From a virus (taxonomy: Duplodnaviria; Heunggongvirae; Uroviricota; Caudoviricetes): a stretch of 64,000 nucleotides of DNA. A program made the position numbers and the translations under genes. The notes beneath the pieces were generated by a model, which was given only the letters and a program-made list of their open reading frames with translations, searched no databases and had not been told where the DNA came from. The stretch covers positions 64,001 through 128,000 of IMG/VR virus record IMGVR_UViG_3300044557_000292; one strand, given 5' to 3'. Positions 14,143 through 44,091 of the stretch are shown in pieces; within the stretch, counting starts at the first letter, position 1; each line of letters starts with the position of its first letter.

Positions 14143-15258
14143 TTAGCCCATGATCATTGAGATGGAATCACCGGAGAAGTCAGAGTAACTCACCCTGGTG
14201 GGCTTGACACCATCTATGTTATTATTCCAAATCTCCGGTTCTTCCGTGAACACTCCGGCGCGGTGGAGCTCAACTACCGCCTTGGCATTCTTGCTCTTAA
14301 AGTTGGGATCATCAGATCTGTTCTTATCGATGACTGATTTGGGAAGCCATCGTCCACCGTTTCCGCGGCCAAGGGCAGTATAGTTGTCCATCCCGCGTTG
14401 ATATCGTGATTCTGCTCTACCTACGCTTACATCAGGATCAATGTCAACGAACACAGCCTTGATGTCTTTATAGCCGGACGATCTTAGAAGATCGATCTTA
14501 CTCTGGATCTTTTTAGCATTCCCCATGGTCCCATCAATGATGATGTTGATCTTCCTGGAGGCCGCTTCCATCAAGATCATCTTAGTTATGTCTGACGCCT
14601 CCTCATGGACTAACGGGCACGCCTCCATTGGTGTGAGACCCTTGATTCTCGGAATCTTACCCCTCCTGGCGAGCTCTTCCTTAATGTCATCGTTATTGAT
14701 GACAAGATATGATTTAGGATCATATCCGGCCATCTTAAGAACGGTGGTCTTACCCGCTCCCCCAAGCCCACCGGTAAACAGAACCTTGCCCTCACGCTTG
14801 ACGTTCTTAGCTGATTTCATTACCTTCTCCACAATGTCGAGATGAAGAGCTTGCCGTTCTTTATCATAAACACGAACGCCCTCCGGGAGGATTCTGGTGT
14901 GACTGCTCCTAGTGTCCTTATGAGCTTTCACGGCTGCGTTCGTCACGTCCTCAACGAACGCTTTACGGTAGTCACGATCTAGCTTGCTGATCTGAGTATG
15001 ATTCCTGATGGCGTCATTTAGGATTCGCTTCTGGTACTCAGCTCTTTCGACCAGGGATGGTGGAGTCCGTTTTGACAAAGCCTGCGTACTGGCGTTATTC
15101 TTATTGATCTGTTCTAGCCTATGTTCTAATTCCTTCCTGCTACCCGCAGTGAGGTGCTCTGATTCATTATGGATTCTACACGGTCTTCCTTCCTCGGTCA
15201 TGCATTGAGCCCATGACCCGTCGGGCTTCTGATGCCATGTTTCAGCAGGTCTCCTCAT
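14143..15258 (-). CDS. Zeta-toxin-family P-loop kinase with N-terminal Cys/His module
   Basis: FTGGLGGAGKTT, INNDDIKEEL, LVHEEAS, IIIDGTM, GGRWLP; start MRRPAETW after GGAG. Confidence 0.85.
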   Translation of the reverse strand: MRRPAETWHQKPDGSWAQCMTEEGRPCRIHNESEHLTAGSRKELEHRLEQINKNNASTQALSKRTPPSLVERAEYQKRILNDAIRNHTQISKLDRDYRKAFVEDVTNAAVKAHKDTRSSHTRILPEGVRVYDKERQALHLDIVEKVMKSAKNVKREGKVLFTGGLGGAGKTTVLKMAGYDPKSYLVINNDDIKEELARRGKIPRIKGLTPMEACPLVHEEASDITKMILMEAASRKINIIIDGTMGNAKKIQSKIDLLRSSGYKDIKAVFVDIDPDVSVGRAESRYQRGMDNYTALGRGNGGRWLPKSVIDKNRSDDPNFKSKNAKAVVELHRAGVFTEEPEIWNNNIDGVKPTRVSYSDFSGDSISMIMG

Positions 15259-15465
15259 GAGTTCACGCTCCGTTTGATACTTATAGTTTTTGCACGTTGT
15301 GAAAAGAAATCTAACTAAAAATGAACATGATGATAATACGATCAGCACCCACAGACTCTATCAAACAGATTGGTCAATTAGTACAGAAATAGTCTCTTGT
15401 AGAAGCATGGGCGCGGTACTATCTTCAATGATATTTTCATATTGCCATGTAAGGGAGGGATCATC

Positions 15466-19962: not shown

Positions 19963-20754
19963 TCACGCCTCGCCGGCATCTGCCTTCAAGCGATCATCAA
20001 GATGATGATCCCCACCGTAACCGCTCACATCGTGCAGACGGTCCCAGATGTGAACACGACCCTCCTCATCTGACTTCTTCACGTCAATCACGCGCTGGTT
20101 GCTCGAACCGCGGAACTGGAGGTTTGGGTCCTTCCTGCCATACATGAATCGTCCATCTACAAGAACGTCAACATACGAGAGCAGTTCGAGCTTGTCGGGA
20201 GTCTCGCCCTCGAGATGCAGCTCTTCCCAGGTGAACCCAGTCCATGACCAGATGTCCTTACTGTTCCCATAGACCTCACGGACATGCTTACAGAGCTGGA
20301 TGAGCATTGGAGTGTTAGCGAATGGTTCGCCGCCTAGTAGGGTGAGCCCCTGAACGTAATCGTACTGGAGATCATCAATGATCTGATCTTCCAGTTCTTG
20401 CGTGTACGGGAACCCGGCGTTGAAATTAAAGATGGCAGGCTGGAAGCAGTCCTTGCAACGGAAGTTGCAGCCGCTCACGAAGAGGCTGTGACGAACGCCC
20501 TCTCCATCACTGACAACGAATCTCTTATAGTCAGCTATCTTCCATCTGCTGAGCCTCCTGCCATCATATTGTCCTGGACGGGGATTGTTCGAGTAAGCAT
20601 ACGGTATGCCTGGTCCTCGATCTCCGACGTACTCAGGGTCAAAATCATGCACCTTCTGTGCTACCATCTTGGCAATCTGATCTTTTGATATAGAGTTATA
20701 ATCTCCCGTCTTCCTGAATGCTCTCATCTGTACTTCCTTTCCATGATTCACCAT
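19963..20754 (-). CDS. nrdG: Anaerobic ribonucleotide reductase activating protein (radical SAM)
   Basis: DGEGVRHSLFVSGCNFRCKDC, GLTLLGGEPF, DVLVDGRF, FRGSSNQR. Confidence 0.96.
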   Translation of the reverse strand: MVNHGKEVQMRAFRKTGDYNSISKDQIAKMVAQKVHDFDPEYVGDRGPGIPYAYSNNPRPGQYDGRRLSRWKIADYKRFVVSDGEGVRHSLFVSGCNFRCKDCFQPAIFNFNAGFPYTQELEDQIIDDLQYDYVQGLTLLGGEPFANTPMLIQLCKHVREVYGNSKDIWSWTGFTWEELHLEGETPDKLELLSYVDVLVDGRFMYGRKDPNLQFRGSSNQRVIDVKKSDEEGRVHIWDRLHDVSGYGGDHHLDDRLKADAGEA

Positions 20755-27615: not shown

Positions 27616-28668
27616 TCATGCTTCATGATCATCTGAATCATCGTCATCAGCAAACGTGAAGTCATTTAAGTCAATAACGTCGTCATCTGTACTGTCACCG
27701 TCGCCAGCACTGGAATCGCCACTCGTCTCCGGTTCTGCGGGCGACTCATCAACGCCGATCTTCGCCGCGTCGTCAGGCTCATCATTGGCGGCCTCCTGGA
27801 GAGCGTCCATACTGTTATCCCACGCATCCTCCGGTCGATCATTACCTCCAGTCTCGCCCCTCAACTCGGGTCGACCAATATGATAAGACTCGTCTTCCTC
27901 ACGGGTCACTCCCTCCTGGTACCCCTGTGCTTGATGATTGCTGCCATCACTTGCTATGGTCTCAGGTGCCTTCAAGCCGGGCATGTCCGTACTGATGCCC
28001 TGCTCGGCCATCTTACGCTCGTGCTCAGCGTTGATCCGCTCCTTCTCAGCCCGGGTGCGGGCGATGTACTTACTGTTATCAACACCCTGCAGGTTATCAA
28101 GATTACCGCCGCCCGTGACCCCGTCAAGCCCGCGGTCGATGAACGCAGATGGACCCGTTGTCTTCGGAGTGCCGTCACGATTGAGCCCACGCCTGTCAAG
28201 CCATCCATCAATCCACTCCTGGGGCGCGAAGTACACCTGCAGACGCTGCTCATGCCCGTACGTGCTGATGACAGCACGACCCTTCGGGTTCCCGGGGGTC
28301 TTCACGGCAGATCCAGACCCGAGGGTCATCGCTGAGGCCGTCATGTTCATGTTCCCGCACGCAAGACGCATTCCAAGGTTCGCCTTCAGCTCTCCCGGGA
28401 GAAGTTTCGCATCCGGCCTCTGAGTCGCAATAGAAAGGTGAACTCCAGCCGCTCGACCAAGACGCGCTATAGATCCAATCATAGATTGCGCTTCACCCTT
28501 CAAGGCCTGCTGGGCTTTAGCGTCATCACTGTTATGGGTGGGAACACCGTTCTTACCAATCAGGAACTCATGGTTCGGTGAGTCTACCCTAATGCAGTAT
28601 ATGGCTTCATCCGGAACATCTACTCTCTTAATGTCGGCAAGAGTAAACAATTCTTCATCATTCTTCAT
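27616..28668 (-). CDS. Fractured FtsK/SpoIIIE ATPase, last piece: split intein C-half (46 aa) + C-terminal extein
   Basis: IYCIRVDSPNHEFLIG...VPTHN|SDD, then IARLGRAAGVHLSIATQRPDA...LKANL...PGNPKGRA; acidic tail. Confidence 0.92.
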   Translation of the reverse strand: MKNDEELFTLADIKRVDVPDEAIYCIRVDSPNHEFLIGKNGVPTHNSDDAKAQQALKGEAQSMIGSIARLGRAAGVHLSIATQRPDAKLLPGELKANLGMRLACGNMNMTASAMTLGSGSAVKTPGNPKGRAVISTYGHEQRLQVYFAPQEWIDGWLDRRGLNRDGTPKTTGPSAFIDRGLDGVTGGGNLDNLQGVDNSKYIARTRAEKERINAEHERKMAEQGISTDMPGLKAPETIASDGSNHQAQGYQEGVTREEDESYHIGRPELRGETGGNDRPEDAWDNSMDALQEAANDEPDDAAKIGVDESPAEPETSGDSSAGDGDSTDDDVIDLNDFTFADDDDSDDHEA

Positions 28669-28862
28669 ATGAATAAGATATGCACGAAAACGTTAGAACT
28701 ATTCATTTTTAATGATCCGATTTCTTTCAGGAGAAACTCTAGCATCGGGACTCTGCATTGTAAATCGCGAATGTTAGCAACAAATTATGGTTGCATTATC
28801 TATCTTTTGAATTAAAATAGAATTATTAAATTAAAATCAACAATCTATAGGAGGATTCTTAA

Positions 28863-29402
28863 ATGAGTCAACCATTTGATCCTAATAGTATTATATATAC
28901 TCATATTTGCGCTTTATGCGGGAAGACCTTCACTGATCACCATAATACAACAAAATTTTGTAATGGAAGTCATTATAGAACATGTGAAGCCGTCATTGAC
29001 GGGAAAGTATGTGGAAAGAAATTCAAGCTTAAGAACGCTACTAGTAGAACGAGAACATGTTGTAGATCACATGCGGCCATACTTACTCATACGAAAGCTG
29101 CTGATGCCGCCCGATCAAAATCAATTAAACATAGTAAGAAATTTGATGAATCTATGAAGAAAAGATCCAAGTATCTTGATGAGAATCCTGATAAGGATAC
29201 TAGAGCTGGATCTGAAAAATTCAGAAACAATCTTATAGATAAATACGGTACTACAAATACGTCAAATATCGATAAGGTAAAAAGGAAAAGGATAGATACA
29301 ACGAAATCTAGGTATGGAGTTGACTATGATATGCAAGATTCTATTATCAAGGCAAGATGGCTAAAATCATTTACTAAAAAAGAACGTCATAATGAAAAAT
29401 GA
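28863..29402 (+). CDS. Zn-finger/KYG-repeat basic protein, probable DNA-binding part of a homing endonuclease
   Basis: CALCGK, CEA...VCGK, DKYGTTN, SRYGVDY; markedly AT-rich. Confidence 0.65.
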   Translation: MSQPFDPNSIIYTHICALCGKTFTDHHNTTKFCNGSHYRTCEAVIDGKVCGKKFKLKNATSRTRTCCRSHAAILTHTKAADAARSKSIKHSKKFDESMKKRSKYLDENPDKDTRAGSEKFRNNLIDKYGTTNTSNIDKVKRKRIDTTKSRYGVDYDMQDSIIKARWLKSFTKKERHNEK

Positions 29403-30087
29403 GATTAATTATCAAGAGAAACTAAGAAAGAATATACGCGATAAGGTGGCCTTATCTAAGTGGAAATATCCTCGTGAATGTAAAAACAAATTTTTCGATT
29501 CTAACAAAAATACCGATATTAAAGACTATTTGTCTATGATCTTTCACGATACTCAAGATTTCATTCACGACGAGGTCATACCAAATGAAATCTATTCTCA
29601 TAGAGGAATCAATCAATTCAGAAGGTTTAGACCAGATATGAGAAGTGAAGATCTAGGTTTAATCGTAGAATTTGATGGAGTAAATCATTACTCATCCCTT
29701 CACGTTGTTTTATCTGATAAGGATAAAGATGAATATTTAAGATCAGCGGGTTATAAGATTGTTCGTATTCCTTACTTCGTAGTTTTATCTCCTACGTCTA
29801 TTATGAGATTATTCGGAGTAGATGTGAATGACAGATTAAAAGATACTGGAGTTCTTGATTATGGTCTATTTGATAGTCCTGATAATGATTACGGATTAAA
29901 GATTTGCCCTCAATCATTCTGTCATCTTGGAATGATGAAATTCTTTAATGACGTAAAAGCTATGACTAAACATGAAAAGACTGTACTTGATAATGATCTT
30001 AATCTAGTTTCATTGTTTAATAAATATGGTATACCTTCTATCCCAGAAATATATCAAAATGAATATAATGAGATTATTAATAATTAA
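29392..30087 (+). CDS. Vsr/DUF559-like endonuclease (putative homing endonuclease catalytic part)
   Basis: FRPDMR...LIVEFDGVNHY...DKDKDEYLRSAGYKIVRIPY. Confidence 0.8.
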   Translation: MKNEINYQEKLRKNIRDKVALSKWKYPRECKNKFFDSNKNTDIKDYLSMIFHDTQDFIHDEVIPNEIYSHRGINQFRRFRPDMRSEDLGLIVEFDGVNHYSSLHVVLSDKDKDEYLRSAGYKIVRIPYFVVLSPTSIMRLFGVDVNDRLKDTGVLDYGLFDSPDNDYGLKICPQSFCHLGMMKFFNDVKAMTKHEKTVLDNDLNLVSLFNKYGIPSIPEIYQNEYNEIINN

Positions 30088-30486
30088 GATATTTTATGTG
30101 CGGAATGGGTAATAAGGATATTATGCTAAAGGAGGGATGGCTTCCAGTTTACACTCCAGGCAACGCTGTGTATGTGCTAGATTTTAGTGAATAAAATCAC
30201 AGCGTCCTCAGAGTTGTCGTCTGCCCGCACTATCATCAGGCTGCGACGTGATCGATGGCCTAATGGAATCAAAGCTCTTGATGACGCTGGATTCCGCGAG
30301 GCTAGTGGCCCGCGCTACAGTCAATCGCGTTATGAGAAGAACACGTCGCTATCTATAGGTTGTGACGGTAATCTATCATCGTTCGCTTTGAAGTACTGTT
30401 TTTTTTGGCACGGCGTGTCCCATTGCTTCCACGTTTGATCCCGTGTTATAATGGAATCGTTCAAAACGAATGGTTGAAGGAGATTC

Positions 30487-31005
30487 ATGATGGAAGCGCT
30501 GCAATCAAGGAAAATGCAAGCAACCGAATTGTTTAAGCCCGTTGAGAGCGCATGGTCTCGTCTCATCAATGAGTTCAGAGATATGGGGGCAGAGGTTGGA
30601 CCTGGCCCATGGTCTGATCACGTTGATGATGACAATGATCATAGCGTGATCATCAAGTACAGCAACGACCGGTACGGAACATTCCTCATCTGGCTCATTG
30701 ATCGTGCCGACGGCTTCAATGGGGACAAGCGGCGCGACGTGTGGTCTTGCTCATGGCTGATCCCCTCTGGCTCCGGTCGCGGCGGCGAGCGTGGATTAAC
30801 TGATCGGAGCGGTCATCCATTTGACACCACGATTACCGCCCAGGAATTAATTGACAGGCTTCAGACTATTGCTGACACTGACCCGTATACCGGCAAGAAT
30901 GTTGGATGGCAGAACATGCACCACGTGGGGTTCGCCGGGTTCGCATCTGATGAGTCCATTGACCGGGCGCGTCGTGAGCAGGAATACCCGGGGTGGTACG
31001 ACTGA
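30487..31005 (+). CDS. Hypothetical protein
   Basis: 172-aa ORF with AAGGAG SD and upstream TGTTATAAT. Confidence 0.75.
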   Translation: MMEALQSRKMQATELFKPVESAWSRLINEFRDMGAEVGPGPWSDHVDDDNDHSVIIKYSNDRYGTFLIWLIDRADGFNGDKRRDVWSCSWLIPSGSGRGGERGLTDRSGHPFDTTITAQELIDRLQTIADTDPYTGKNVGWQNMHHVGFAGFASDESIDRARREQEYPGWYD

Positions 31006-31033
31006 GCTGTCGCAAAAATTGCGACAGCTCAGT
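31001..31033. terminator. Perfect 15-bp hairpin between convergent genes
   Basis: ACTGAGCTGTCGCAA-AAA-TTGCGACAGCTCAGT; no U tract. Confidence 0.65.
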
Positions 31034-31101
31034 GCGAAGATGAGAACACTCGGTACGGTATGACTGATCCAACTCAGTTCTAATCGTACTGATGAATTCC
31101 C

Positions 31102-31890
31102 TCATTGTCCTTCGCCCGCCTCAAGATCCTCACCGGTCCTCCTCCACCTAGCCTGGCGGAGGTAATCCCTTAACTCCTTAGGAGTGTTCACGTTATAGGA
31201 GACGGTCTCTCTAACATTCCAATCTGGATCTTTAGCCAACTCACGAAGCGTTTCCTCTGGAGTACTATGATTCCGGACTACCTCAATCTTCACGGTTTCA
31301 TCATCGTTCTTCGCCAAAATGGAGAGGACATCCGGCGGCGTGTTCTCGTTCGCAGCCACCAATTTTCTCAATCCCGTCCCACGTTGTCTGCCAAGGACGT
31401 CAAGCACTTCAGGTTGAGTGTCAGGATCCGCTGCAAGCATGTGCTTCACCTTACGCTCAGCGCCCCACGCGAGATGTAGACGTTTAGTAGAGACTGTAGA
31501 TCTCGTATACGGACTTCCATTATCGGAGGAACTCCGCGCGAGTTCCATATCGGTAACATGTCCGTTCTTATATGAATTCCATATCTCCCGGGTTGTGGCG
31601 TCGGGGCTTCTCATTATATGTCTTCCATAACTCCTGGGCCGTGATGTTTTTCTCCTCACTGTGAGACTTCTTCATGGCGGCGGGCAATGATTGGGCTTCT
31701 GCATCAATCTTCTTCCTCTCGCCATTCTTCATTGTCTTGTGGAGTTCAGATGACGTTAACACTGTCTATACTGGTTCGAGATGCTCACCGTTCGGCACCC
31801 CTTCCGGTACCCGGTGACGTGGACGCCCGCGCGATCGCAATCCTCGACCCAGGTAGCGCCCTGTACCGGTGGCTCACCATGATCACTCGT
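31102..31890 (-). pseudogene. Decayed GATWV-tag gene with HEAT/LRV-repeat body
   Basis: SD AAGGAGG then ACG instead of ATG; tag SDHGEPPVQGATWVEDCDRAGVHVTGYR; +2 insertion, in-frame TAG, second frameshift into 31102-31659 (VAANENTPPDVLSILAKN repeats). Confidence 0.8.
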
Positions 31891-32007
31891 CTTATTCCTC
31901 CTTCATATCACGTCACTCATATTAGAACAGTGTTGATTCAACGAATTGGTTTTCGACACAACATGTGTCCCGAAGCACGCCGCTCCGGCCGTGGGACATC
32001 GATCTTA

Positions 32008-32412
32008 TCAAGATTCGAGCTCATAGTGATCTTGGCTGAATGACCCACCCTGCAGCTCGCGGACGCACTTGTTAAGCGCGTTAACGAGCGACTTACCGCC
32101 GCGTGGGTTGAGCGAGATGCTGTGATTCCAACTGTTACCGCATTCGAGGGTGTAATGGAAGTACTCGGTAAGCTCCTGTACGGTGCCCGTTTGCTTTGAG
32201 ACTCGACCGCGATGCGTCTTGATGATCGTGTATGTTCTCGCGCCCTTCTTCTTCAATGTCTTGCTGGGCGCGTCCGGCGCTGACGTAACCTCTACTGGTT
32301 CGAGATGCTCACCGTTCGGCCCTCTCCAGTACCCGGAGACGTGGACGCCCGCGCGATCATAATCCTCGACCCAGGTAGCGCCCTGTACCGGTGGTTCACC
32401 ATGATCACTCAT
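32008..32412 (-). CDS. GATWV-tag family protein, short phage-like body
   Basis: MSDHGEPPVQGATWVEDYDRAGVHVSGYWRGPNG; GGGAGG SD. Confidence 0.88.
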   Translation of the reverse strand: MSDHGEPPVQGATWVEDYDRAGVHVSGYWRGPNGEHLEPVEVTSAPDAPSKTLKKKGARTYTIIKTHRGRVSKQTGTVQELTEYFHYTLECGNSWNHSISLNPRGGKSLVNALNKCVRELQGGSFSQDHYELES

Positions 32413-32879
32413 CTTATCCTCCCTTATTGCGTTATAGTCATATTAACGTGCCATTGATCTAACGGTTACGTTAGCATACCATTAATCTAACGAATCAATG
32501 CTCTTCTTACTAGAAATCACTGTACTCCATCGTTTCAGCCATGTGGATACGGGGATGCAAAACGTTTATACCAGATAGTAGGGCGTGATGGAATATAAGC
32601 ACCGCAGCGCGCACGGAGTCAACGCTTGATTTGAGTCTTGTTTTAAGCTCTTCACCAGATAATCCATTAATCAAGTTGTGAGATCGCAGTAAGGCTGTTA
32701 TTGGATAGTTAACCAATAACAGCCTTTTTCTAAAGCTCTTGAATTAAATGATGTGGCCGATAACCTCATTGGCTATTCCATCATTGAACCCAATCTAATC
32801 TGCCTCTGCGATCTCACAAGGCTTGTTCCCGTCATTTAGAATATGATGCCTACTACTCTAAACAACGCGCTATGATGGA

Positions 32880-35423
32880 TCAATACTTCAGATCACTTCC
32901 CGTCTTATCAATACTGATTGACCTGTCCTCATAGAACTCATCTATATCGCCATTAGAATCAGCAATGCGTCCAGTCTCACCCTCAAGCTGCTTAGCCCGG
33001 TGAATGATCTCCTCGTGGCGCCCGTGGACCATTGGCCTTGCGGATGGTTCACCAAGATAACCGCACACCCTCTTCACCACCTGTACCGTCGTAGGATCGT
33101 CGTTACCACATTCCGGGCACTTGTATCCATCTGACGTTGGGGCGAAGTCGCCCTGATAACCGCATAGCTCGCAGGAATCGATTGGGGTGTTAGATCCAAG
33201 GAATGGCACACCCTTCTCATAAGCATAATCCCACATGGCCTCAAGACCCTTAAGATTCTGCCTCATGGACGGGTACTCGACGTAGATGATATTCCCGCCC
33301 GCACTGTACTTCGGGCACTCGCACTCGAAGTCGATCTTACTCGCCGCCGAACCATTATCAGCGTAATGGAAGTGCGGTCTGTTCACGACCTCGAGCACGG
33401 ACGCTGTTGGCTCGTGTGGCTCTGATCCTATCCAAACGGGCCGATGGAAGCTATTCGTATAGAAATCATGGTCGGTGATACCGGGGATCACCCCGAACTT
33501 CTCCTTGTCAAGACGGGCAAGCTTGTCAGTGAGAGACTCGGCAGGTGTACCGTAAACAGAACAATGAACACCCTCCTCATCCTCCCACTGCTTGCAGAGC
33601 TTAGTGAGCTTCTTAAGGATTGAGAGCATGAACTTGTGAGCATCCTCATCCCAACCGTAGTCATTCGCCCAGTCCTTACCATAGAACATGGCCGTGGTCT
33701 CGTAGAGTCCAATGTAACCGAGGGATATGGTCGCCCTCGACCTGAGCATAAGCTTGGACACGTCATCACCATCGTGCAGACGTCCGAACCCACCGTGCTC
33801 CCATAAGCCGGGCGCGTTCTCAGGAAGCGCTTCCTGAGTCCTCTTGATCCTGAACTGGAGGGCGTGATGCGCGACCTCCATCCTCTGATTGAAGATCCTC
33901 CAGAACTTCCTCCTGTTACCATGCGACTCGATGGCGATGCGCGGGATGTTCACGGTCACCACTCCGAGGTTCATGCGGCCATCTTCCTCATCCTCGCCGG
34001 TATCTGGGTTCACCCAGCCCTGCAGGAATGAACGGCAGCCCATTGGCGCTTTGAATGAGCCAGTGACCTTGACCACATTCTCATAGAAGAGAACGTCTGG
34101 GTACATGCGCTTGCTCGTGCACTCTAAGGCAAGCTGCTTCATGTCATAATTCGGAGTGCCGGGGGCATCATTCAGGCCATGCTTGATCGTGAACGTGAGC
34201 TTGGGGAAGATGGCCGTCTTGTGCTTTGAACCGAGGCCGTTGATCCTGATGAGTAAGATGCAGCGTTGGATCTCCCTCTCGAACCAGTCCTCACCGAGAC
34301 CGAATCCAATCGTGACGAACGGAGTCTGTCCAGTGGTAGCGTGCTGCGTGTTCACCTGGTACTCGATTGTCTGCATGGCGTCATAGATGTTCTTGCGGGT
34401 GAGAATCTTCACGTAGAGGTCACGCTCGCGATCGAGTGGATCTTTGATGCCCTCATCTGGATGGTCAATGATCGTCGCTCGATTAGGAATATGAAGATTC
34501 TTGTTCTCATTCCTCTTCGCGATCACGACCATCTTGCGTGCAGTCTCGGGGTCCGTGCCGTCGGGCATGAGGGTCTTCACGATCTCCATGTTCTTGTCAT
34601 AATTCTTGCGGGCGTAGATGGAGAGAACCTCGTCTGCACGGTTGAATGACTGTCCACCATACTGGCTCGACGCCACGTCAAGCATGATCTGCGTGACTTG
34701 GGTGGCAGCAGTCTCAATGCTCTGTGGTGATCCCATCTCAGCATTGCCAAGCATGAACCCATTGGCAAGCATGTCTTTGAAGTTCGGTAGAGAACAGTTC
34801 GTCATTGGAGTGAATGGCGAATAGTCAGCGTCATGGAAGTGGATGTCGCCCTTCGCATGAGCGTTCGCCACATCAGCTGGCAGCATCTTAAGGGCTATCG
34901 AACGCGACACGGTTCCAGCGAGAAGATCCCTCTGCGTGGAGTAAACGCGGGAGTCCTTATTAGCGTTCTCGTTCACGAGGGTCTTATCCTTGCCGACGAA
35001 CCTCTCGATCTCGTGGTTGATGTCTAGGGACTTAGCGCGCTTGATGTCCCTGGAGAGCCTGTAGTCAGTGTATGACTTGGCCACGTCATACCATCCATGA
35101 TTGATGATCTCATGCTCGACCAGGTTCTGGATGTCCTCGATATGGACGGGCTGCGTGTACCTTTCCTTCACCGTCGACTCGATCTCGGCTGCTATAGAGC
35201 TGATCTGGTCGTCCTGACCCTTAGTGGTAGTCTTGCCGACATCATGGAAGGCAAGACTGATGGCTCGTATGATGTTCTCACCGTCGAAGTCAACGATCCT
35301 ACCATCCCTCTTCAGAACGTTGATCGGCTCATAATTGTCAAGATCATCCCCGTCATACTGATGCTCATCGGTCTTGTCGTCTACTTGAGCTCTTACCTCT
35401 GGTTCTATCAATAATGCTGTCAA
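32880..35423 (-). CDS. nrdD: Class III anaerobic ribonucleoside-triphosphate reductase with ATP-cone
   Basis: VLKRDGR cone, NENANKD, IHFHDAD, QYGGQS, PMGCRSF, YGTPAESL, CxxC pairs, KRVCGYLG glycyl-radical motif. Confidence 0.97.
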   Translation of the reverse strand: MTALLIEPEVRAQVDDKTDEHQYDGDDLDNYEPINVLKRDGRIVDFDGENIIRAISLAFHDVGKTTTKGQDDQISSIAAEIESTVKERYTQPVHIEDIQNLVEHEIINHGWYDVAKSYTDYRLSRDIKRAKSLDINHEIERFVGKDKTLVNENANKDSRVYSTQRDLLAGTVSRSIALKMLPADVANAHAKGDIHFHDADYSPFTPMTNCSLPNFKDMLANGFMLGNAEMGSPQSIETAATQVTQIMLDVASSQYGGQSFNRADEVLSIYARKNYDKNMEIVKTLMPDGTDPETARKMVVIAKRNENKNLHIPNRATIIDHPDEGIKDPLDRERDLYVKILTRKNIYDAMQTIEYQVNTQHATTGQTPFVTIGFGLGEDWFEREIQRCILLIRINGLGSKHKTAIFPKLTFTIKHGLNDAPGTPNYDMKQLALECTSKRMYPDVLFYENVVKVTGSFKAPMGCRSFLQGWVNPDTGEDEEDGRMNLGVVTVNIPRIAIESHGNRRKFWRIFNQRMEVAHHALQFRIKRTQEALPENAPGLWEHGGFGRLHDGDDVSKLMLRSRATISLGYIGLYETTAMFYGKDWANDYGWDEDAHKFMLSILKKLTKLCKQWEDEEGVHCSVYGTPAESLTDKLARLDKEKFGVIPGITDHDFYTNSFHRPVWIGSEPHEPTASVLEVVNRPHFHYADNGSAASKIDFECECPKYSAGGNIIYVEYPSMRQNLKGLEAMWDYAYEKGVPFLGSNTPIDSCELCGYQGDFAPTSDGYKCPECGNDDPTTVQVVKRVCGYLGEPSARPMVHGRHEEIIHRAKQLEGETGRIADSNGDIDEFYEDRSISIDKTGSDLKY

Positions 35424-35599
35424 CTCTTATACTCCTTCTGCTACCTGTTCTAGGGGAGTCTTCACCTAGGTCGCCCCCTACCTGCTGATCATTCCGTTTC
35501 ACTGGATTCACCTCGGGATCCCGTGAATGCGTGTAATGAAAATCTAACGCGCTGATGTATCCTACAGTGTTAAGATATGTATATGGTACCCCTCAGGAA

Positions 35600-35647
35600 A
35601 CACTACGGGTTGCGTTGCTATACAATGAATCTCACTACATATTGCGC
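35600..35647. promoter_or_regulatory. Tandem NrdR boxes upstream of nrdD
   Basis: ACACTACGGGTTGCGT (35600-35615) and TCACTACATATTGCGC (35632-35647), 32-bp period, resembling acaCwAtATaTwGtgt. Confidence 0.7.
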
Positions 35648-35831
35648 TTTTGAGCTCATTGATCCTTATAGAATTCTATAGAATATTGTAGAATTTCCTT
35701 CCACTCTCCGCGGGCTTATTGACCTTAAGACGATCTTATTTGTGAGTCTACAGTAGTTAGATTTAACGTGATGATATTTATTATGATGAAACATCATATT
35801 ATAGGGGTTATAGTACGAGGAGAGTTTGGAC

Positions 35832-36392
35832 ATGAGTGTGAACGAAGCGGTAAGAGACGCAATATGGGTGAAGCCGTACGAACGAGCTGGAGTACATGTC
35901 CGCGGGTACTGGAAGAGTCCCAACGTGGGTAAGATTCATGACGAGTCTCCTAACGTAGATCAACGCGAGCAGATTCTTGGAAGGTCAACTGCAATTGATC
36001 ATTACGCCCGCCGTCCAATGATTCGAGACTACACGTTCGAGGGCGTGAAGTTCAGGGTTGATGGGGCCACGTCGTCCGGTAGAGCTATCATAGGGGCGTT
36101 CACATCAGTCGCAGAGCATCTTCACCATGTGGATGGGGTGTTCCCATGGATGAACGATGAGGAGCTTGATGAGAAGATCAGGAATGAGAACATCGCCCTC
36201 ACGAATCCGCATAACGATGCTGATTCCATTAGAAGGAAGATCGGCGCGCTTGAGGAGGAGTACTCTGATAGGACTCATGAGAAGGTTCGAGATCATATGG
36301 ATGAGGTCATTACCGAGCTGTCGCGCCATAAGGTGAAGTATCAATCCCTGCGGTCTGTTCTCAAGACCATGCTTGAATCATATAAACTGTAA
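35832..36392 (+). CDS. Divergent GATWV-tag family protein
   Basis: DAIWVKPYERAGVHVRGYWKSPN; GAGGAG SD. Confidence 0.8.
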   Translation: MSVNEAVRDAIWVKPYERAGVHVRGYWKSPNVGKIHDESPNVDQREQILGRSTAIDHYARRPMIRDYTFEGVKFRVDGATSSGRAIIGAFTSVAEHLHHVDGVFPWMNDEELDEKIRNENIALTNPHNDADSIRRKIGALEEEYSDRTHEKVRDHMDEVITELSRHKVKYQSLRSVLKTMLESYKL

Positions 36393-36452
36393 CAGGGCCC
36401 CCGTCTCTTTAATAGTATAAGAGGCTCTGTTAACCGCGATCACGCTTAGCGT

Positions 36453-36767
36453 TTACGCCCAGGTACCGTTCCTCTTGGCCTCATCAAGGAGACGATCATG
36501 CTCTTCCTCAATCCTAGCATAATGTTCTATATCTTCATCATTGGCGTTCTTCCACTCAGCTATGGCAGCATCGTCAACAGCGCGATTCGCATTATGGACT
36601 ATTCTTGACAGGTATGACGCCCTTCTAGCAGGACCAAACTTGTATCCAGACGTTATAGTTCTCAGTCGACCGAATAGGTATGCTAGCGAAGCAACGCCTG
36701 ATATGATGGCCGCCAGCCCCGTTACTGCTAAGCCGCCCCTAATGATCTTTCCTATTGTCCTCATCAT
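36453..36767 (-). CDS. Small membrane-anchored hypothetical protein
   Basis: 104 aa, one hydrophobic segment, GAGGGG SD. Confidence 0.65.
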   Translation of the reverse strand: MMRTIGKIIRGGLAVTGLAAIISGVASLAYLFGRLRTITSGYKFGPARRASYLSRIVHNANRAVDDAAIAEWKNANDEDIEHYARIEEEHDRLLDEAKRNGTWA

Positions 36768-36858
36768 AACCCCCTCGACTTTCGTTCAGAATGATAGTTA
36801 ACAGTTACACTGTTATTATAACGGTAATAAGATATGTGGAAAGAGTAAGCTATAGTAA

Positions 36859-37818
36859 TCATTCCGCCTTATTGATCTCATTGAGGGCGTTGCCCACAGA
36901 CGACCTCTTGAACTTGATGTTCTTACGCTCTGACTCTGGGGTGGACTCCCATATGCTCATGAGCTGATCTGTGGTCACGGTCAAAGGCTCATCATCCCCA
37001 CCACTGGGGTACACTGTCCACGAGTGCTGCGCACCACACGTGAAGTCCTCGGTGGAATCATCTGAATCCCTCTTCACCGTGACCCTATAAGCCTCACTCG
37101 TTAACGGCTCGTACTTCTCGATCACACGATGCCATTCCCCGTCATCACCGACCACATGATCGCCAACCTTAAGCTCACCTAGATTCCTCCTGCCCTCAAG
37201 ACTGGGGACGATCGTGGCGGCAGCAAGCGCCTTGGCGGGTGATGACGTGTCGAGCAGCTCGCCGGCCTCGTCGACCATGACCATGAGAGCGCTACCGGCG
37301 TTCTCCATGTCGAGGAAGTTGTTATGGCCGGCTGCCTCCATGTCCCCATACCTGTCCATCATGGTCTCCTGGGCGAAACGGAGAACCTCGATCGCGTCCT
37401 CCAGGGTCGTGGCCACACCGATGATCGCGTTCGTGTACGGCTTGTAGGCAGAGAGCTCCACACGCTTTAGATCAATGGCAAGCATCTTGATCTCTTTAGA
37501 ATGCGTGATGATATGATCAACGATGTTACGCTGGGCGACGCTCTTACCGCCTCCAGTGTTATGGGTTAGCAATACCGAATCTGACGATTTGTCACGGAGT
37601 TCATATGAATGTGTTTTGTGTTCTACTCGGATGCACCTGACCGGTTCTTGTGGAAGATCATCAACAGATTTGATTCTCATCCATCCATGGCTGATGGAAG
37701 ATGGAATCAGGTAACGATCATATCCATCTTCAACAAGCTTCTTCATGTCAATGACTCTGACGCGCTTAAGATTACGATCCCATACCGTCCAGAGGTGTTC
37801 CTCATCGCACTTAATCAT
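36859..37818 (-). CDS. Fractured FtsK/SpoIIIE ATPase, middle piece: intein C-half (87 aa) + 109-aa extein + intein N-half (123 aa)
   Basis: CDEEHLW...VRCIRV...LLTHN|TGGGKS...AIDLKRVEL...MVMVDEAGELL...PAK|ALAAATIVP...LKVGD...CGAQHSW. Confidence 0.93.
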   Translation of the reverse strand: MIKCDEEHLWTVWDRNLKRVRVIDMKKLVEDGYDRYLIPSSISHGWMRIKSVDDLPQEPVRCIRVEHKTHSYELRDKSSDSVLLTHNTGGGKSVAQRNIVDHIITHSKEIKMLAIDLKRVELSAYKPYTNAIIGVATTLEDAIEVLRFAQETMMDRYGDMEAAGHNNFLDMENAGSALMVMVDEAGELLDTSSPAKALAAATIVPSLEGRRNLGELKVGDHVVGDDGEWHRVIEKYEPLTSEAYRVTVKRDSDDSTEDFTCGAQHSWTVYPSGGDDEPLTVTTDQLMSIWESTPESERKNIKFKRSSVGNALNEINKAE

Positions 37819-37929
37819 ATGTGCAAGATATCATTGGGTGATATTCCCGTTAACGGTTGCAACGTCTGTCGCATAAACGTTTTATTTTTATGACGTAAGA
37901 TATTGTTTCATCTGTAATAGAATGGTATA

Positions 37930-40779
37930 ATGTATTGTATGTTGACTTTATTAGAATCTAAGCCCTTAGCATCTAAGTTATGGGATAAGACCAAGAATAG
38001 CACGCCATTGGAATCAATTGATTCCAACGATGATAAGGAATATTATTGGACATGCAAGAATCATGGTCATAGCTTCAAGATGTCCCCAAAGAATATTCCC
38101 AATGATTCCAGATTCTGTCCCTTTCATACGCTTTTGCTTATACCAGGTCTTAATGATCTACAAACGGTAGATCCTTCGATAGCCAGTTGGTTTGCTGAGG
38201 ATCTTAACGGCGTGCCAGCAAGCAGAATCAGGGCGAATTCAGGGAAAAGGTTCTGGTGGCGCGACCCCAGGCATCATGATCATGTTTGGCAGTCCTCTCT
38301 TTCCAATAGACGAGGGCAACGATCTGGTTGCCCAATATGTAGCGGTCATGTTCTTCTATCGGGAGTGAATGACATAGCCACAATGGATCCAGTTGAGTCA
38401 GAAATGCTGGATACGGAAAAGAATCACGGGTTGACTCCTGATAAGATTCGATATGGATCTAATGCGAAAATATGGTGGAAATGTTCTAGGGGCCACTCGT
38501 TCCTCAAATCGCCCTCATGGATGAGGAATAATGGTGGTAAGTGCGAGCAGTGTGAGATGGAAGACACTTTATCGATAGCGGCTATGTACCCGGATTTAAT
38601 TCCTTGGTTTGATGATGGTTGCAATAAAGATTCCGCCGATCATACCCCGGCAAAGACCATGATGAAAGTTCATTGGAGGTGTTTTAAGGGTCATGCGTTC
38701 ACCATGAGGCCGTATGATATAGAACATGCTTCTCATAAGTGCGTAAGATGTTATGGGAAGGTGAAGAAACGTGTTGTTGAGGGGATAAACGATCTTGCAT
38801 CTCAACGTCCTGACTTATTAAAGCGGTGGGCTTATGATCGTAATAAAGATGATCCCAAAACGGTCAGGATTACTTCTAATAAAGAGTACTGGTGGACGTG
38901 CAAAGAACATCCTGATCATTTGTTCAAGTGCTCTGTGAAGAGAATGAGCTCTCTCGCTAAGAATCAGTGCCCGTATTGCTCTGGAGAAGAGACTCTAGTT
39001 GGGTTCAATGACCTCTTCACCATGATTCCAGAGTTCAAAGGAATATGGGATTACGAGAACAATGCGATTGATCCATCAACAATCCGCGTACAAACTAGAG
39101 GTACTGGAGCTTGGTGCAATAATGATGATGTTCTTTCCTGGAGGTGTTCTAAGGGTCATCACTGGAAATGCAAGATTTCAGATCTTCGAAGAGGCAATCA
39201 CAAGCATTGTCCATACTGCTTGGGAAAGATTATGCTTCCTGATCATTCTAATAGCATTGCGTCAGATTATCCAATTGTTCTTAAGGAATGGTTTTCTGAT
39301 AAGAATGGCGACCCCAACAATATAACTACAGGATCTTCGATAAGAAGCAAGATCTATTGGAAATGCTCTAATTGCGGAGGAATATGGAAGACGCGACCGT
39401 TCTACTATATTAACAACGTATCTTTTAAGCATGACAATAACTGTCCTTATTGCCACGATCGGGAGTTACTGACCGGTCTCAACGATCTTGCCACCAGGCG
39501 GCCAGATCTGATTCCAATGTGGTCAGAGAAGAATGACAAGGGTCCAGGTGAGTACATCTTCAACAGTCATGAAGAGGTGATATGGAAGTGCCCGGCTGGT
39601 CATCATCGTGAATGGAGAGATTCCATTCGCAATGAGGTCAACGGAGGGTACACTGCTGGATGCTACGTCTGCAAGAATAAGGTCTATTCGCTTGGAGAGA
39701 ACGATCTTGCTACGCTGCGCCCAGATCTGGTAAAAGAATGGGCGTATGATCTCAATAAGACCAGACCAGAAGATCATATGATCAATGATAGAACGCCAAT
39801 TATGTGGAGGTGCAAGAATGGCCATGTATGGACTTGTTCTATTTCCGGAAGAGCATTTGATCATAATGGGTCTTGTTTCAGATGCGCATCTGGTCTTCAT
39901 ACGAGTGAACCAGAGAATGAGATTACCAGTTATCTAAGATCTATTCTTGGACATGATGAGATAATCGTTAATAACGATAGAAAGATTCTTGGAGGACCCG
40001 AGCTTGACATTTATCTTCCTAACCGTCATGTCGCTATTGAATATAATGGTCTCTATTGGCATTCGGTTCTAGTAGACAATCAATTCAATAAGACTCGTCA
40101 TTATGAGAAATACACGTCTTGCAAGCAATTGGGAATCCGCCTCATACAGATCTGGGAAGATCAGTGGCTCGATCACCCCGATATTGTTAAGGACTCATTG
40201 AGAGCAATACTGAAGCCTGAGACCATGATTAAGGAGAACGCTCGGTCACTTCATGTCGAAGAACCAGAGAGATCATATGCTCAGAAGTTTCTTGATGAGA
40301 ATCACATTCAAGGGCATGCGGGAGGATGCTCATACCTCGCTCTCGTCGATGATCATCATATGATTAAGGCCTGCATGGCTTACAGGGTGAATGATTCCGA
40401 GTTCAATCTTGTTCGATATGCGTCCGAGCTAGGTCATAACGTAAGAGGTGGATTGAGCAAGCTTTTAAAGCATTCGATAAGCATCGTGAATAAAGACGAT
40501 AAACGGGTAGATCATGTGGTGACATTCAGTGATAACACGATTAGCGAGGGTGCGTCATATGAGAAGATAGGATTCCACATTGATAAGGAAATTCCTCCAG
40601 ATTACTCTTACGTGAGTGGGAAGCATCGTTTCCACAAGTTCTTGTATCGTAAGAAGAGATTCCGTGATGATCCTGATCTTAAGTATGATCCAACTGCTCA
40701 TGAGTCAGAGCTTGCTGAGATGAATGGTCTTAATCGTATCTACGATGCGGGTAAGATCCGCTGGAGGATGAACGTCTAG
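37930..40779 (+). CDS. Zinc-ribbon repeat (DUF4379-like) protein with C-terminal Vsr-like/Hef-like endonuclease; putative free-standing homing endonuclease
   Basis: About 10 WWxC..GH.....CPYC...G.NDL repeats; ELDIYLPNRHVAIEYNGLYWHS, LIQIWEDQW, FLDENHIQG, RIYDAGKIRW. Confidence 0.88.
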   Translation: MYCMLTLLESKPLASKLWDKTKNSTPLESIDSNDDKEYYWTCKNHGHSFKMSPKNIPNDSRFCPFHTLLLIPGLNDLQTVDPSIASWFAEDLNGVPASRIRANSGKRFWWRDPRHHDHVWQSSLSNRRGQRSGCPICSGHVLLSGVNDIATMDPVESEMLDTEKNHGLTPDKIRYGSNAKIWWKCSRGHSFLKSPSWMRNNGGKCEQCEMEDTLSIAAMYPDLIPWFDDGCNKDSADHTPAKTMMKVHWRCFKGHAFTMRPYDIEHASHKCVRCYGKVKKRVVEGINDLASQRPDLLKRWAYDRNKDDPKTVRITSNKEYWWTCKEHPDHLFKCSVKRMSSLAKNQCPYCSGEETLVGFNDLFTMIPEFKGIWDYENNAIDPSTIRVQTRGTGAWCNNDDVLSWRCSKGHHWKCKISDLRRGNHKHCPYCLGKIMLPDHSNSIASDYPIVLKEWFSDKNGDPNNITTGSSIRSKIYWKCSNCGGIWKTRPFYYINNVSFKHDNNCPYCHDRELLTGLNDLATRRPDLIPMWSEKNDKGPGEYIFNSHEEVIWKCPAGHHREWRDSIRNEVNGGYTAGCYVCKNKVYSLGENDLATLRPDLVKEWAYDLNKTRPEDHMINDRTPIMWRCKNGHVWTCSISGRAFDHNGSCFRCASGLHTSEPENEITSYLRSILGHDEIIVNNDRKILGGPELDIYLPNRHVAIEYNGLYWHSVLVDNQFNKTRHYEKYTSCKQLGIRLIQIWEDQWLDHPDIVKDSLRAILKPETMIKENARSLHVEEPERSYAQKFLDENHIQGHAGGCSYLALVDDHHMIKACMAYRVNDSEFNLVRYASELGHNVRGGLSKLLKHSISIVNKDDKRVDHVVTFSDNTISEGASYEKIGFHIDKEIPPDYSYVSGKHRFHKFLYRKKRFRDDPDLKYDPTAHESELAEMNGLNRIYDAGKIRWRMNV

Positions 40780-41639
40780 TCCCTGGTAAGAGATTCCTCG
40801 TACTCATCCTCCGCATCTGCAAGTACGTCTGCCGTCCATTCCGGGACGTCGTCCCAGGGATAGGGTTCTAGGGTGAGGCCATACAGGCAGTCTGCCTGCA
40901 TGATTTGGCTCACACCGTCAACCCTGGTGGGCCCATCTGGTCCAATGACCATATCACCGATCTTAACCCCGCCCATCGTCGTCTCTGTTCCATCGGCCAG
41001 TGGGATGATCGTGTCGAGGGTGAGTGGTCCTCCGCAGTTATGGGTCGGCACGCCGCTCTTCATGACCTCATCGTACTCATCCTTGTCAACGCGATACTCG
41101 ACACCGTTGCTCGATGGGATCGTCTTCAAATCGGGCTGATCGGTATTCGACCAATTGCCCTTCTGATCAGTATGCTCGAGTAGGCTAGAGTCATTGCTAG
41201 ATGCGAGTAGGAATGTGTGCGTCGGTGAGTCAACCCTAAGGCACTGCACCTTGATCTTGTCAGCATCATTGTCATCAACGAGCAGGCAACTCTTCACCAT
41301 CCAATGCTTGACTGCACCATCCGGCGTCATGATCGGCGCGAGGATTGGGTGATGACCCCTGGTAGTCCACGTGGCGATGTCCCCCGTGCTCGCCTCAGTC
41401 TCCCCCCTGTATGCTAGGGGGACGTCTGACGATGATGGGTCAAGTGGCCATACGTGACCAGCGTCAGCATTGTATGAATCCACATGACCATACGTGTCAA
41501 CGAACGTGATCCTGTAAAGCTCGCTCGGAGTCTCAGCACTAGTCTTGGAGAGGACTATCGAGATTCTTCCATCGGCATCAATAGTCCTATCGCCAGTCTT
41601 CACGTCAGCAAGACGCTTCGGCATCATCATCCATCTCAT
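40776..41639 (-). CDS. Fractured FtsK/SpoIIIE ATPase, micro-extein piece: long intein C-part + CGG + short intein N-part
   Basis: KRLADVKTGD...ADAGHVW...VQCLRVDSPTHTFL...VPTHN|CGG|PLTLDTIIPLADG...VKIGD...LYGLTL; start placed at the ATG 6 nt after CATATCTT (ORF track start 41675). Confidence 0.88.
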   Translation of the reverse strand: MRWMMMPKRLADVKTGDRTIDADGRISIVLSKTSAETPSELYRITFVDTYGHVDSYNADAGHVWPLDPSSSDVPLAYRGETEASTGDIATWTTRGHHPILAPIMTPDGAVKHWMVKSCLLVDDNDADKIKVQCLRVDSPTHTFLLASSNDSSLLEHTDQKGNWSNTDQPDLKTIPSSNGVEYRVDKDEYDEVMKSGVPTHNCGGPLTLDTIIPLADGTETTMGGVKIGDMVIGPDGPTRVDGVSQIMQADCLYGLTLEPYPWDDVPEWTADVLADAEDEYEESLTRD

Positions 41640-41766
41640 GTCATGAAGATATGAGTCTTCAATCATTCTATGCATATGTGATCACGTGTGTCCATATTGA
41701 ATTCGATGATAGATTACATGTGTTATTAATGGTGTCTGATCTTGATTGATTATAATGATGGAGGAT

Positions 41767-42558
41767 ATGATGGGTGATCATGGGGAGCCACCGGAGGAGG
41801 GCGCTACCTGGGTGGAGGACTACGAGCGCGCGGGCGTCCACGTCTCCGGGTACTGGCGTGGTAGGGATGGGCATAAGATCTATCAGGTGGAGGAGTCGGG
41901 GCCACGGTCCCTTGGAGGCGGCTTTGACCCTGGGGATTCTAACGTTCTTAGGAAGAAGAGACCTGGCGAGCGTGACTGGGATCGCGTGAACGTGAGGATC
42001 GAGAATCTTATCCATAAGGAAGGTCGTCTATCGAAGGGGGACGTTGAGGGTCTTAAGGACACGACCGTACAGCTCATCATGTCAAAGCGTAAGATTAACA
42101 GGGGTACCTATGATAACGCTCGCGTCGCATACGAGATAGATCCAGACTCTGCCAGCATGGATGAGTACGTTGCCCTCAGTCTTTACTCCCACATCACCGC
42201 CGTCAAACTAGCTGAGTCAAAGAAACTTGACAAGAACAAGGTTGGTCTCCTCATTCATAATGGTGGTGATCTAGCCATTGAAGCCCTGGCGTCTAATCCA
42301 GATCTCCCAGACGACTGCTGGGAGATGGTTGAGTCGCAGTGCAGCTGGAATGAGGGCGTGTGCGCAAGACTTGCCTGCAATCCGTCATGGCCTAACGCTA
42401 ATGCAGCCGGGAGGCTGTATGCGAGTGGACAATGGGGTGAGATACCGGCCATGGGCGTTACGTTATTAGAACGCGGTGATCTTGATGATGACGTGAAGCG
42501 GGGTATCTTGAAGATGAATGATCAGTGGAATAAGGATCGTCGCTGGTATAATGGTTAA
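41767..42558 (+). CDS. GATWV-tag family protein with LRV/HEAT-like helical body
   Basis: MMGDHGEPPEEGATWVEDYERAGVHVSGYWRGRDG; ALASNPDLP, LACNPSWP. Confidence 0.87.
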   Translation: MMGDHGEPPEEGATWVEDYERAGVHVSGYWRGRDGHKIYQVEESGPRSLGGGFDPGDSNVLRKKRPGERDWDRVNVRIENLIHKEGRLSKGDVEGLKDTTVQLIMSKRKINRGTYDNARVAYEIDPDSASMDEYVALSLYSHITAVKLAESKKLDKNKVGLLIHNGGDLAIEALASNPDLPDDCWEMVESQCSWNEGVCARLACNPSWPNANAAGRLYASGQWGEIPAMGVTLLERGDLDDDVKRGILKMNDQWNKDRRWYNG

Positions 42559-43434: not shown

Positions 43435-44091
43435 TCACTGCTCTTTACGCAGTATAGCATTCTTGATGAGTGTCATGGTCGTGTCACTGCTGGATATCTC
43501 ATCCGCGCACTTCTTGAGCAGCTCGTGAATAGAGCCATCCTCGTCTCTAACATTCCTCTTATAGTTGATCTGATGCTCTAGTGATGACCATGCGTCCATT
43601 GCGATCGTCCTGATTTGAATCTCCGCCTTGATCTTCCCATCACCTGGAATCGTGACGATAAGGTGATAACTCCTGTAACCACTAGGCTTGGGACGGGCTA
43701 TGTAGTCTTTCTCCTCGATGACTGAGCCTCCCCTTCCTACGATAAGATCTTTTATGATTCCAACGGCGTCATAGACGTTGTCCGTGAAGCTGCACACGAC
43801 GCGAACACCAACCACATCATGCATCATGTTAACGGCCGTGCGCCCATCTAAACCCATATTGTTTTTTGAGAGCTTCTCCATCATTGACGACGGATCTTTG
43901 ATCCTACCATTCACGTACTCAATCGGCTCGACGCCGGGCTCCTCACCCCTGCCCATCTGGTCAGAGCAGTCGCGGAGTATCTTCATAAGCCATTGGTACG
44001 CTGAGGTCAACATTTGTAATGATTCACCATAATATTCTTCATAGGAAGTCCTGTCCCCAATGATTCCATCTGGAGCGGCCATTGTGATCAT
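43435..44091 (-). CDS. Small alarmone (p)ppGpp synthetase (RelA_SpoT domain, RelP/RelQ-like)
   Basis: GRIKDPSSMMEKL, DVVGVRVVC, KDYIARPKPSGYRSYHL, EIQIRTIAMDAWSSLEH. Confidence 0.95.
   Translation of the reverse strand: MITMAAPDGIIGDRTSYEEYYGESLQMLTSAYQWLMKILRDCSDQMGRGEEPGVEPIEYVNGRIKDPSSMMEKLSKNNMGLDGRTAVNMMHDVVGVRVVCSFTDNVYDAVGIIKDLIVGRGGSVIEEKDYIARPKPSGYRSYHLIVTIPGDGKIKAEIQIRTIAMDAWSSLEHQINYKRNVRDEDGSIHELLKKCADEISSSDTTMTLIKNAILRKEQ

Follow-up and report, generated by a model that had tools for sequence, protein, structure and literature searches.

A predicted FtsK/SpoIIIE-family DNA translocase encoded in four genes that carry the halves of three class 3 split inteins

One gene product in four pieces

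The consecutive parts of a single ATPase of the FtsK/SpoIIIE family are encoded in four separate genes, spaced by up to ~117 kb on an element of ~420 kb, with halves of three class 3 inteins at the edges of the parts. On the evidence of the sequence we hold with good confidence that the intein halves would likely pair and splice in trans, giving one membrane-anchored chain of ~846 residues. Three of the genes lie in the window, the 64,000-nucleotide stretch (C1:64001-128000) of a 419,707-base record that has direct terminal repeats and is rated complete; the fourth, which carries the N-terminal piece, lies outside it. The features are as follows, in window positions unless a record or contig is named.

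G000:C1:208552-209979 (L009:8552-9979), plus strand, outside the window: piece 1, a 430-aa membrane-anchored extein followed by IntN1 and a tail
End of piece 1: IntN1, a Pro-started core of ~11 residues with a 34-aa acidic tail
41037..41639, minus strand: IntC1 of piece 2, 201 aa if counted from 41639, with a basic N-terminal patch
41028..41036, minus strand: extein of piece 2, Cys-Gly-Gly, the start of Walker A, invariant in 26/26 stand-alone clusters
40776..41027, minus strand: IntN2 of piece 2, 83 aa, Pro at position 1, motifs N1-N2, stopping before N3
37930..40779, plus strand: predicted free-standing homing endonuclease, treble-clef repeats and a nuclease domain, antisense between IntN2 and IntC2
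37558..37818, minus strand: IntC2 of piece 3, 87 aa, beginning at N3 with His-x-Trp; block-F Cys and Thr-His-Asn
37231..37557, minus strand: extein of piece 3, 109 aa, the remainder of Walker A through Walker B, Pfam PF01580
36859..37230, minus strand: IntN3 of piece 3, 123 aa, Ala at position 1, N1-N3 with His-x-Trp, canonical split
28531..28668, minus strand: IntC3 of piece 4, 46 aa, block-F Cys and Thr-His-Asn
27616..28530, minus strand: extein of piece 4, 304 aa, RLGRAAG and ATQRP motifs and an acidic tail
28863..30087, plus strand: two endonuclease-like ORFs adjoining IntC3 (Pfam DUF7487 and DUF559/RAP), missing in some strains

The initial annotation of this DNA had described three minus-strand ORFs, and all three translate over the spans it assigned to them without internal stops; each IntC, as it had also noted, ends in Thr-His-Asn and is followed by Cys, Thr or Ser. 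The ORF of piece 2 likewise stands, with a start at 41639 that is uncertain, 41666 (the public gene call P0118) and 41675 being alternatives. The intein 1 part of this piece runs from about position 15 to the terminal Asn.

Membership of the FtsK/SpoIIIE ATPases follows from Walker A, Walker B, RLGRAAG and ATQRP, which stand in register, together with Pfam PF01580. The core extein matches Pfam FtsK_SpoIIIE at E 1.6e-9, and when the piece 3 extein is aligned over 106-109 residues to 14 intein-free homologues, 46-66 positions are identical; pieces 1, 2 and 4 have no Pfam match. Across the 6,987 six-frame ORFs of the 420-kb record, a regular expression for the intein C-terminal junction gives 5 matches, a search for the block-F motif returns exactly pieces 2, 3 and 4, and profiles of related inteins find no other intein-like ORF at E<=1. 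At that threshold the profiles match only pieces 2, 3 and 4, so the replicon has no rival long intein part.

Piece 1

It had been predicted from the window that a first piece would be found elsewhere on the replicon and would end in a short block-A fragment. Such a gene exists ~103 kb from piece 2, on the opposite strand, and its Pro-started fragment of ~11 residues is followed by an acidic tail. A block-A regular expression run across the genome did not find it; homology to intact N-termini did. The first 330 residues of 10 longer homologues served as queries against all ORFs, and eight of the ten matched C1:208552-209979 (+), with a best E of 5e-6. The protein has two hydrophobic segments, as in intact homologues. 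Its first codon is GTG in other runs and TTG in this record, which is consistent with a start codon.

The last five extein residues, before the Cys of the Walker A Cys-Gly-Gly, are PMSLI, followed by the block-A fragment and the acidic tail; an ending of this build is present in 17/17 clusters of piece-1 homologues (this one included), where the net charge after the junction is -5 to -14. The acidic tail of IntN1 varies from 8 to 79 aa among these homologues, and a basic patch precedes the first conserved IntC1 motif in 33 of 37 homologues. The acidic tail and the basic start of IntC1 may help the two halves to capture one another. A predicted complex between IntC1 and IntN1 scored 0.88, but a control reached 0.72, and the result is weighed on neither side.

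Searches with the piece-1 alignment returned two matches in metagenome contigs and none in viral contigs. The GTDB search gave a single 3.2-kb contig, in a Pararhizobium MAG, too short for host naming. With P0002 as query there were no usable loci in viral or genome contigs, no plasmid match, and one weak phage match.

Collinearity with single-chain relatives

A lack of collinearity with intact homologues would have counted against the reading in the initial annotation; the exteins are in fact collinear with both intact and cis-intein relatives. The register at the junctions was taken from anchor motifs and from the relative P0168 because MAFFT fragment mapping misplaced the fragment ends. Measured from a conserved Pro, the Walker A Ser/Thr comes at 14 residues in 15/15 homologues with an uninterrupted Walker A, and pieces 1-3 reproduce this exactly (5+3+6=14). 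From Walker B to RLGRAAG the pieces give 43 residues, as compared with 42 in 13 of 14 intein-free homologues (in the fourteenth the regular expression was mis-anchored); the third junction is longer by one residue, a form common to cis-intein-3 relatives such as P0008.

P0168 is one natural chain of 859 residues that carries intein 1 in cis, and all the exteins map to it in order. Extein 1 aligns to residues 47-325 (E 4e-47), IntN1 to 333-341, and IntC1 to 351-509, part of the contiguous intein (E 1e-15). After Cys-Gly-Ser, which lies between intein and extein, extein 3 aligns to residues 523-627 and extein 4 to 632-856 (E 6e-54). P0166 is built in the same way.

Three inteins, three cut points

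By their motifs inteins 1, 2 and 3 are all class 3. The signature of this class is a position 1 without Cys or Ser together with a Trp-Cys-Thr triplet (PMC7891396). Here position 1, as fixed by cis relatives, is Pro in intein 1, Pro in intein 2 and Ala in intein 3, and a motif search places Trp in N3, Cys in block F (C2) and Thr before His-Asn (C1) in all three. The catalytic residues are intact in all six halves. The cut points differ, which like the class goes beyond the initial annotation: intein 1 is divided after ~11 residues, intein 2 just before N3, and intein 3 at the usual endonuclease site.

Profiles built from 27 cis-intein-2 and 40 cis-intein-3 sequences assign the halves of inteins 2 and 3 to their partners. 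On the cis-intein-2 profile IntN2 occupies positions 1-76 (31.8 bits, as opposed to 7.8 on the cis-intein-3 profile) and IntC2 positions 212-285 (66.2 against 5.7); on the cis-intein-3 profile IntN3 occupies positions 1-121 (114.4 bits, against 10.3 for cis intein 2) and IntC3 positions 141-187 (51.6 against 14.0). Each half scores 24-104 bits higher on its own cis profile than on the other, and paired halves occupy non-overlapping stretches. IntN1 is too short for scoring on either profile. Over short shared blocks the three inteins are mutually only 33-50% identical.

Among solved structures, the class 3 DnaB inteins 6bs8/6rix come closest in both sequence and fold. The sequence profile matches them at E 5e-14, the IntN2 region of the alignment profile corresponding to their residues 1-55. 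The HINT fold was recovered with low-confidence models (mean pLDDT 52 and 55) of cis relatives instead of the split halves: P0012 matches 6bs8 at E 2.7e-7 with a target TM of 0.86, and P0008 gives E 1.3e-4 and TM 0.48.

Three-piece inteins were also considered for this locus and rejected, as each pair is already complete with N1-N3, C2 and C1. Elsewhere, a free-standing ORF resembling the middle of an intein (L044:3027-3482, in G002) lies two genes behind an FtsK N-piece whose IntN and IntC are both very short. Another N-piece (L042:1273-2706, in G001) has a Cys-started contiguous intein three residues before the first site of the present locus; its last part, past the Walker A Lys, is a short IntN. 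Taken across the family, the intein sites that fall within ~12 codons of Walker A number at least four.

Empty, contiguous and split states

Each of the three inteins is contiguous in some relatives and absent in others. Fifty-one longer relatives were sorted in this way: 6 join IntC2 to a cis intein 3; 11 run from IntC1 through Cys-Gly-Gly and a cis intein 2 to IntN3; 18 open on an IntC that belongs to a fourth site, past the Walker A Lys, and carry a contiguous intein 3; in 2 the only intein is intein 3; and 14 are intein-free, so that intein 3 is in cis in 26 of the 51. Within the best 150 of 735 matches from an exhaustive homologue search, 21 of which were examined, site 2 is empty in P0147 and site 3 in P0152/P0153.

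Stand-alone forms of the pieces recur as well. Piece 2 forms 26 clusters (34-100% identity), and all 26 keep His-Asn-Cys-Gly-Gly-Pro, Trp, Cys and Thr (Trp and Cys by regular expression). Since piece 2 thus retains two catalytic sets around an extein of three residues, which gives no other evident reason for their retention, we infer that it splices on both sides. Stand-alone piece-3 types make up at least four further 50%-identity clusters, at 48-52% identity, among the matches listed. In three other elements the N-terminal extein and the C-terminal one lie in separate genes 90-118 kb apart, and the piece types found across elements suggest a four-piece state in relatives too.

Two further observations concern the copies themselves. 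Immediately upstream of the gene that bears the IntC, at L031/L032:8758-9899 and L034:9863-10429, are short paralogues of the ATPase core that are degenerate and have no intein. In the 437-kb record G002 the FtsK N-piece occurs twice, inverted (C1:71802-72281, plus strand, and 365296-365775, minus strand), as either a long inverted repeat or an assembly duplication.

Endonuclease genes and strain variants

The ORF at 37930..40779 encodes 949 residues with Pfam DUF4379 and matches PHROG 559 ('HNH endonuclease', E 1e-87) and PHROG 3339 ('homing endonuclease', E 7e-80); the endonuclease-like ORFs at 28863..30087 match PHROG 3339/559 weakly. In contigs from 2 of 4 runs a joint omits 28695-30329, which takes out the endonuclease-like ORFs beside IntC3. 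A 6,237-base contig from another run covers 35611-41844 with 58 differing letters and the same layout of pieces 2 and 3 and the endonuclease. In ten bioreactor-sludge runs, one of them possibly the source run, 85% or more of the words from 36859-41675 are found; in one run, guessed to be RNA, the share is just 0.05. For piece 1, 3 of 4 runs give coverage in each of the 30 bins. Rejoining at the RNA or DNA level was rejected, as no joint in contigs of other runs connects the ends of the pieces. A promoter scan gave 40 sites, as compared with 28.6 +/- 5.8 in shuffles, a difference that is given no weight here.

Of the strain variants of piece 1, 40 of 72 rows were counted, 35 of them inside the ORF. 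Extein variants are synonymous in 17 cases (one being the start-codon swap) and non-synonymous in 4, with 22% of sites synonymous. The IntN1 core has one synonymous variant and no non-synonymous one, and the tail has 7 and 6.

The element

The record is filed in IMG/VR; the phage label was rejected, as no virion genes were found. Pfam names no terminase, portal or capsid among 269 ORFs outside the window and 49 window queries, and PHROGs likewise give none among 111 mostly Pfam-blank ORFs, one of which matches transglycosylase/tape-measure families and one RIIB. Outside the window the scan took in ORFs from 130 aa upward, and virion genes of high divergence could escape it. Among five related elements PF03237 is found in none and the VirB4 C-half in all five. 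What Pfam does name is a replicase, DnaE, gyrase, DnaB, DnaG, RecA and ligase, along with Tad pilus genes, TcpE, VirB4/TcpF in two genes, VirB6-like and VirD4-like proteins and type I-E Cas; a CD3337/EF1877-family membrane protein, CrgA, PBP and NucS are also encoded, and ARAGORN counts 51 tRNA/tmRNA genes. From this gene content the element looks like a conjugative megaplasmid. Its host is probably an actinobacterium, judging only from CrgA, NucS and plasmid homologues; host assignment failed for RecA, Fba and the VirD4-like protein, with best identities of <=50%.

The type I-E Cas set lies at G000:C1:~244900-253500, the tRNA cluster begins at ~306500, and the tmRNA is at 267185-267540. The two VirB4/TcpF halves (model positions 6-428 and 467-810) are unlinked, at G000:C1:206357-207811 (+) and 223038-224264 (-) (L016, L017), and have no intein; as the C-half is a frame of ~400 aa in 5/5 related elements, the split is family-wide. 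Topoisomerase I occupies two adjacent minus-strand ORFs, G000:C1:344355-345776 and 343248-344354 (L023; Pfam positions 2-288 and 298-410). An anaerobic ribonucleotide reductase (window 32880-35423, minus) sits between pieces 3 and 4, and nearby minus-strand genes at 19963-20754, 43435-44091 and 14143-15348 encode, respectively, its probable activase, a small protein of the RelA/SpoT type and a member of the zeta-toxin family.

Proposed assembly and origin

Each pair would fold as a HINT domain and take the class 3 route, in which an internal Cys forms the thioester, the chain is transferred to the +1 Cys, Thr or Ser, and Asn cyclizes (PMC7891396). Because Walker A spans pieces 2 and 3 directly after piece 1, and because the third site sits just after Walker B, all three splicing reactions would be needed. 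Pair specificity may come largely from the different cut places: a wrong pair would lack a motif or have one twice, and specificity could then be had without much sequence divergence. As to origin, three invasions by cis inteins were probably followed by one-by-one cutting by endonuclease genes or rearrangements. A sequence of cis invasion, cutting and drifting apart fits the states seen in relatives. Pieces 2 and 3, with their IntC-extein-IntN order, could self-cyclize if a non-cognate IntN inserted in cis.

We consider it probable, although somewhat less so than the splicing itself, that this would be the first natural protein made by serial trans-splicing: four gene products and three class 3 split inteins separated by cut points, with one 290-residue gene that solely donates three residues of the P-loop. 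That the serial assembly evolved as a four-input AND gate on DNA transfer is doubtful.

Alternative readings

The initial annotation called the product a DNA translocase/coupling protein; Tcp-type T4SS genes are present, but the element also encodes, beyond what that annotation noted, a second coupling protein of the VirD4 kind, so that more than one job is conceivable for the motor. Coupling proteins of the TcpA type resemble FtsK and are limited to some MPF-FA systems (PMC12857230). Taken together, the gene neighborhood and the fold comparison tilt somewhat toward a TcpA-like DNA translocase with a T4SS coupling role in conjugation. The other reading, which we hold to be the less probable of the two while giving it real weight, keeps the splicing as described and makes the product a DNA translocase of the septal or segregation type that serves the 420-kb replicon, or else a TraB-like pump that carries out transfer by itself. 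It would account for the separate TraG/VirD4-like gene and for CrgA and PBP on the element; the best PDB sequence matches are to FtsK, slightly above a 'DNA translocase coupling protein', and the homologues on Rhodococcus and Corynebacterium plasmids adjoin ssb, with no annotated T4SS gene within 25 kb. Yet TcpA is the top ATPase in the fold search, and piece 1 lies two genes behind the TcpF N-half, after a signal peptidase gene, both here and in the relative L038, on an element that also has TcpE, the TcpF C-half and the CD3337/EF1877-family protein. The scores against the NCBIfam FtsK and TraB models are far under their cut-offs, the intact relative P0049 reaching 64 bits on PRK10263 (chromosomal FtsK), where the cut-off is 1566, and no Pfam match to a gamma domain is found on piece 4.

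The splicing itself might be incomplete, such that only some junctions splice and the motor is partly held together non-covalently, or intramolecular mis-splicing consumes much of the precursor. TcpF, encoded on this element too, is made from two genes without an intein, so that non-covalent complementation seems to be tolerated there, and the layout of pieces 2 and 3 is prone to cyclization. Structural reasoning makes this improbable, however, as a tripeptide between two intein domains could not complete a P-loop unless both of its flanks spliced, and the intact catalytic residues of the six halves, conserved for piece 2 in every one of its clusters, argue the same way. Still more remote, to the point of being hardly credible, is the reading of the pieces as decaying remnants of a broken multi-intein gene or as an artefact of assembly. 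The record is a metagenomic assembly, and endonuclease-like genes do lie between the pieces. Against decay or artefact stand the recurrence of stand-alone pieces (17 clusters for piece 1, 26 for piece 2 and at least four more for piece-3 types), the synonymous excess among strain variants, and the same layout in contigs of other runs.

Comparison with known systems

If the splicing is as predicted, nature performs tandem protein ligation of the sort that engineers arrive at through screens of orthogonal pairs, and the locus would supply three co-evolved class 3 split inteins, one with an N-fragment core of ~11 residues that can be synthesized. Two of the three have Thr or Ser at +1. The series of empty, contiguous and split states at each site makes intein splitting and the gain of specificity directly testable. 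Annotation would then be overlooking whole enzymes of this kind, pieces 1, 2 and 4 being invisible to Pfam.

With regard to the motor, TcpA of pCW3 and the FtsK/SpoIIIE translocases (PDB 6o1w-z, 2iuu; PMC12857230) have the same N-terminal hydrophobic segments and RecA-like motor motifs, and Tcp-type T4SS genes are found on this element also. An intact relative, however, is only ~30% identical to them, no gamma domain is detected, and here there is a second coupling protein.

The closest precedent for the gene layout is the set of fractured genes described by Dassa et al. (2009; PMC2677866), in which, as here, the gene of a host enzyme is cut inside an intein and a free-standing putative homing endonuclease lies between the halves, as it does at intein 2. 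In the cases presented there, each gene is broken once and its halves adjoin. The present locus has three breaks, middle precursors that bear both an IntC and an IntN, a host protein of the FtsK family, and one piece ~103 kb away on the other strand.

With regard to the inteins, AceL NrdHF was introduced as the first natural split class 3 intein, no split form having been found among 1,701 class 3 inteins in the database (Hoffmann et al., PMC7891396). It shares with the present inteins the class 3 signature, a natural split and a fractured-gene layout, and its 98/48 aa division is comparable to the 123/46 aa of intein 3. AceL NrdHF is a single intein, whereas three are found here in one protein, with the full Trp-Cys-Thr and two atypical cuts. 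The very short IntN1 has its counterpart in the atypically split PolB16 OarG, whose 15-aa IntN is called the shortest characterized (PMC10189870). That intein is class 1 with a single break, whereas IntN1 is class 3, with ~11 conserved residues and a variable tail.

The initial annotation knew of no natural four-piece case, and none was found in the literature searched (subscription journals and supplements lay outside its scope), where no natural protein with two or more split inteins is described and serial assembly appears only as a laboratory construct. The chemistry, then, is known; as far as this literature was searched, the serial four-gene architecture is new. Its nearest analog is engineered tandem trans-splicing, in which at least three segments are joined by orthogonal pairs (PMC12707363, PMC7090010). 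Those systems were constructed in the laboratory, whereas the arrangement described here is natural and conserved.
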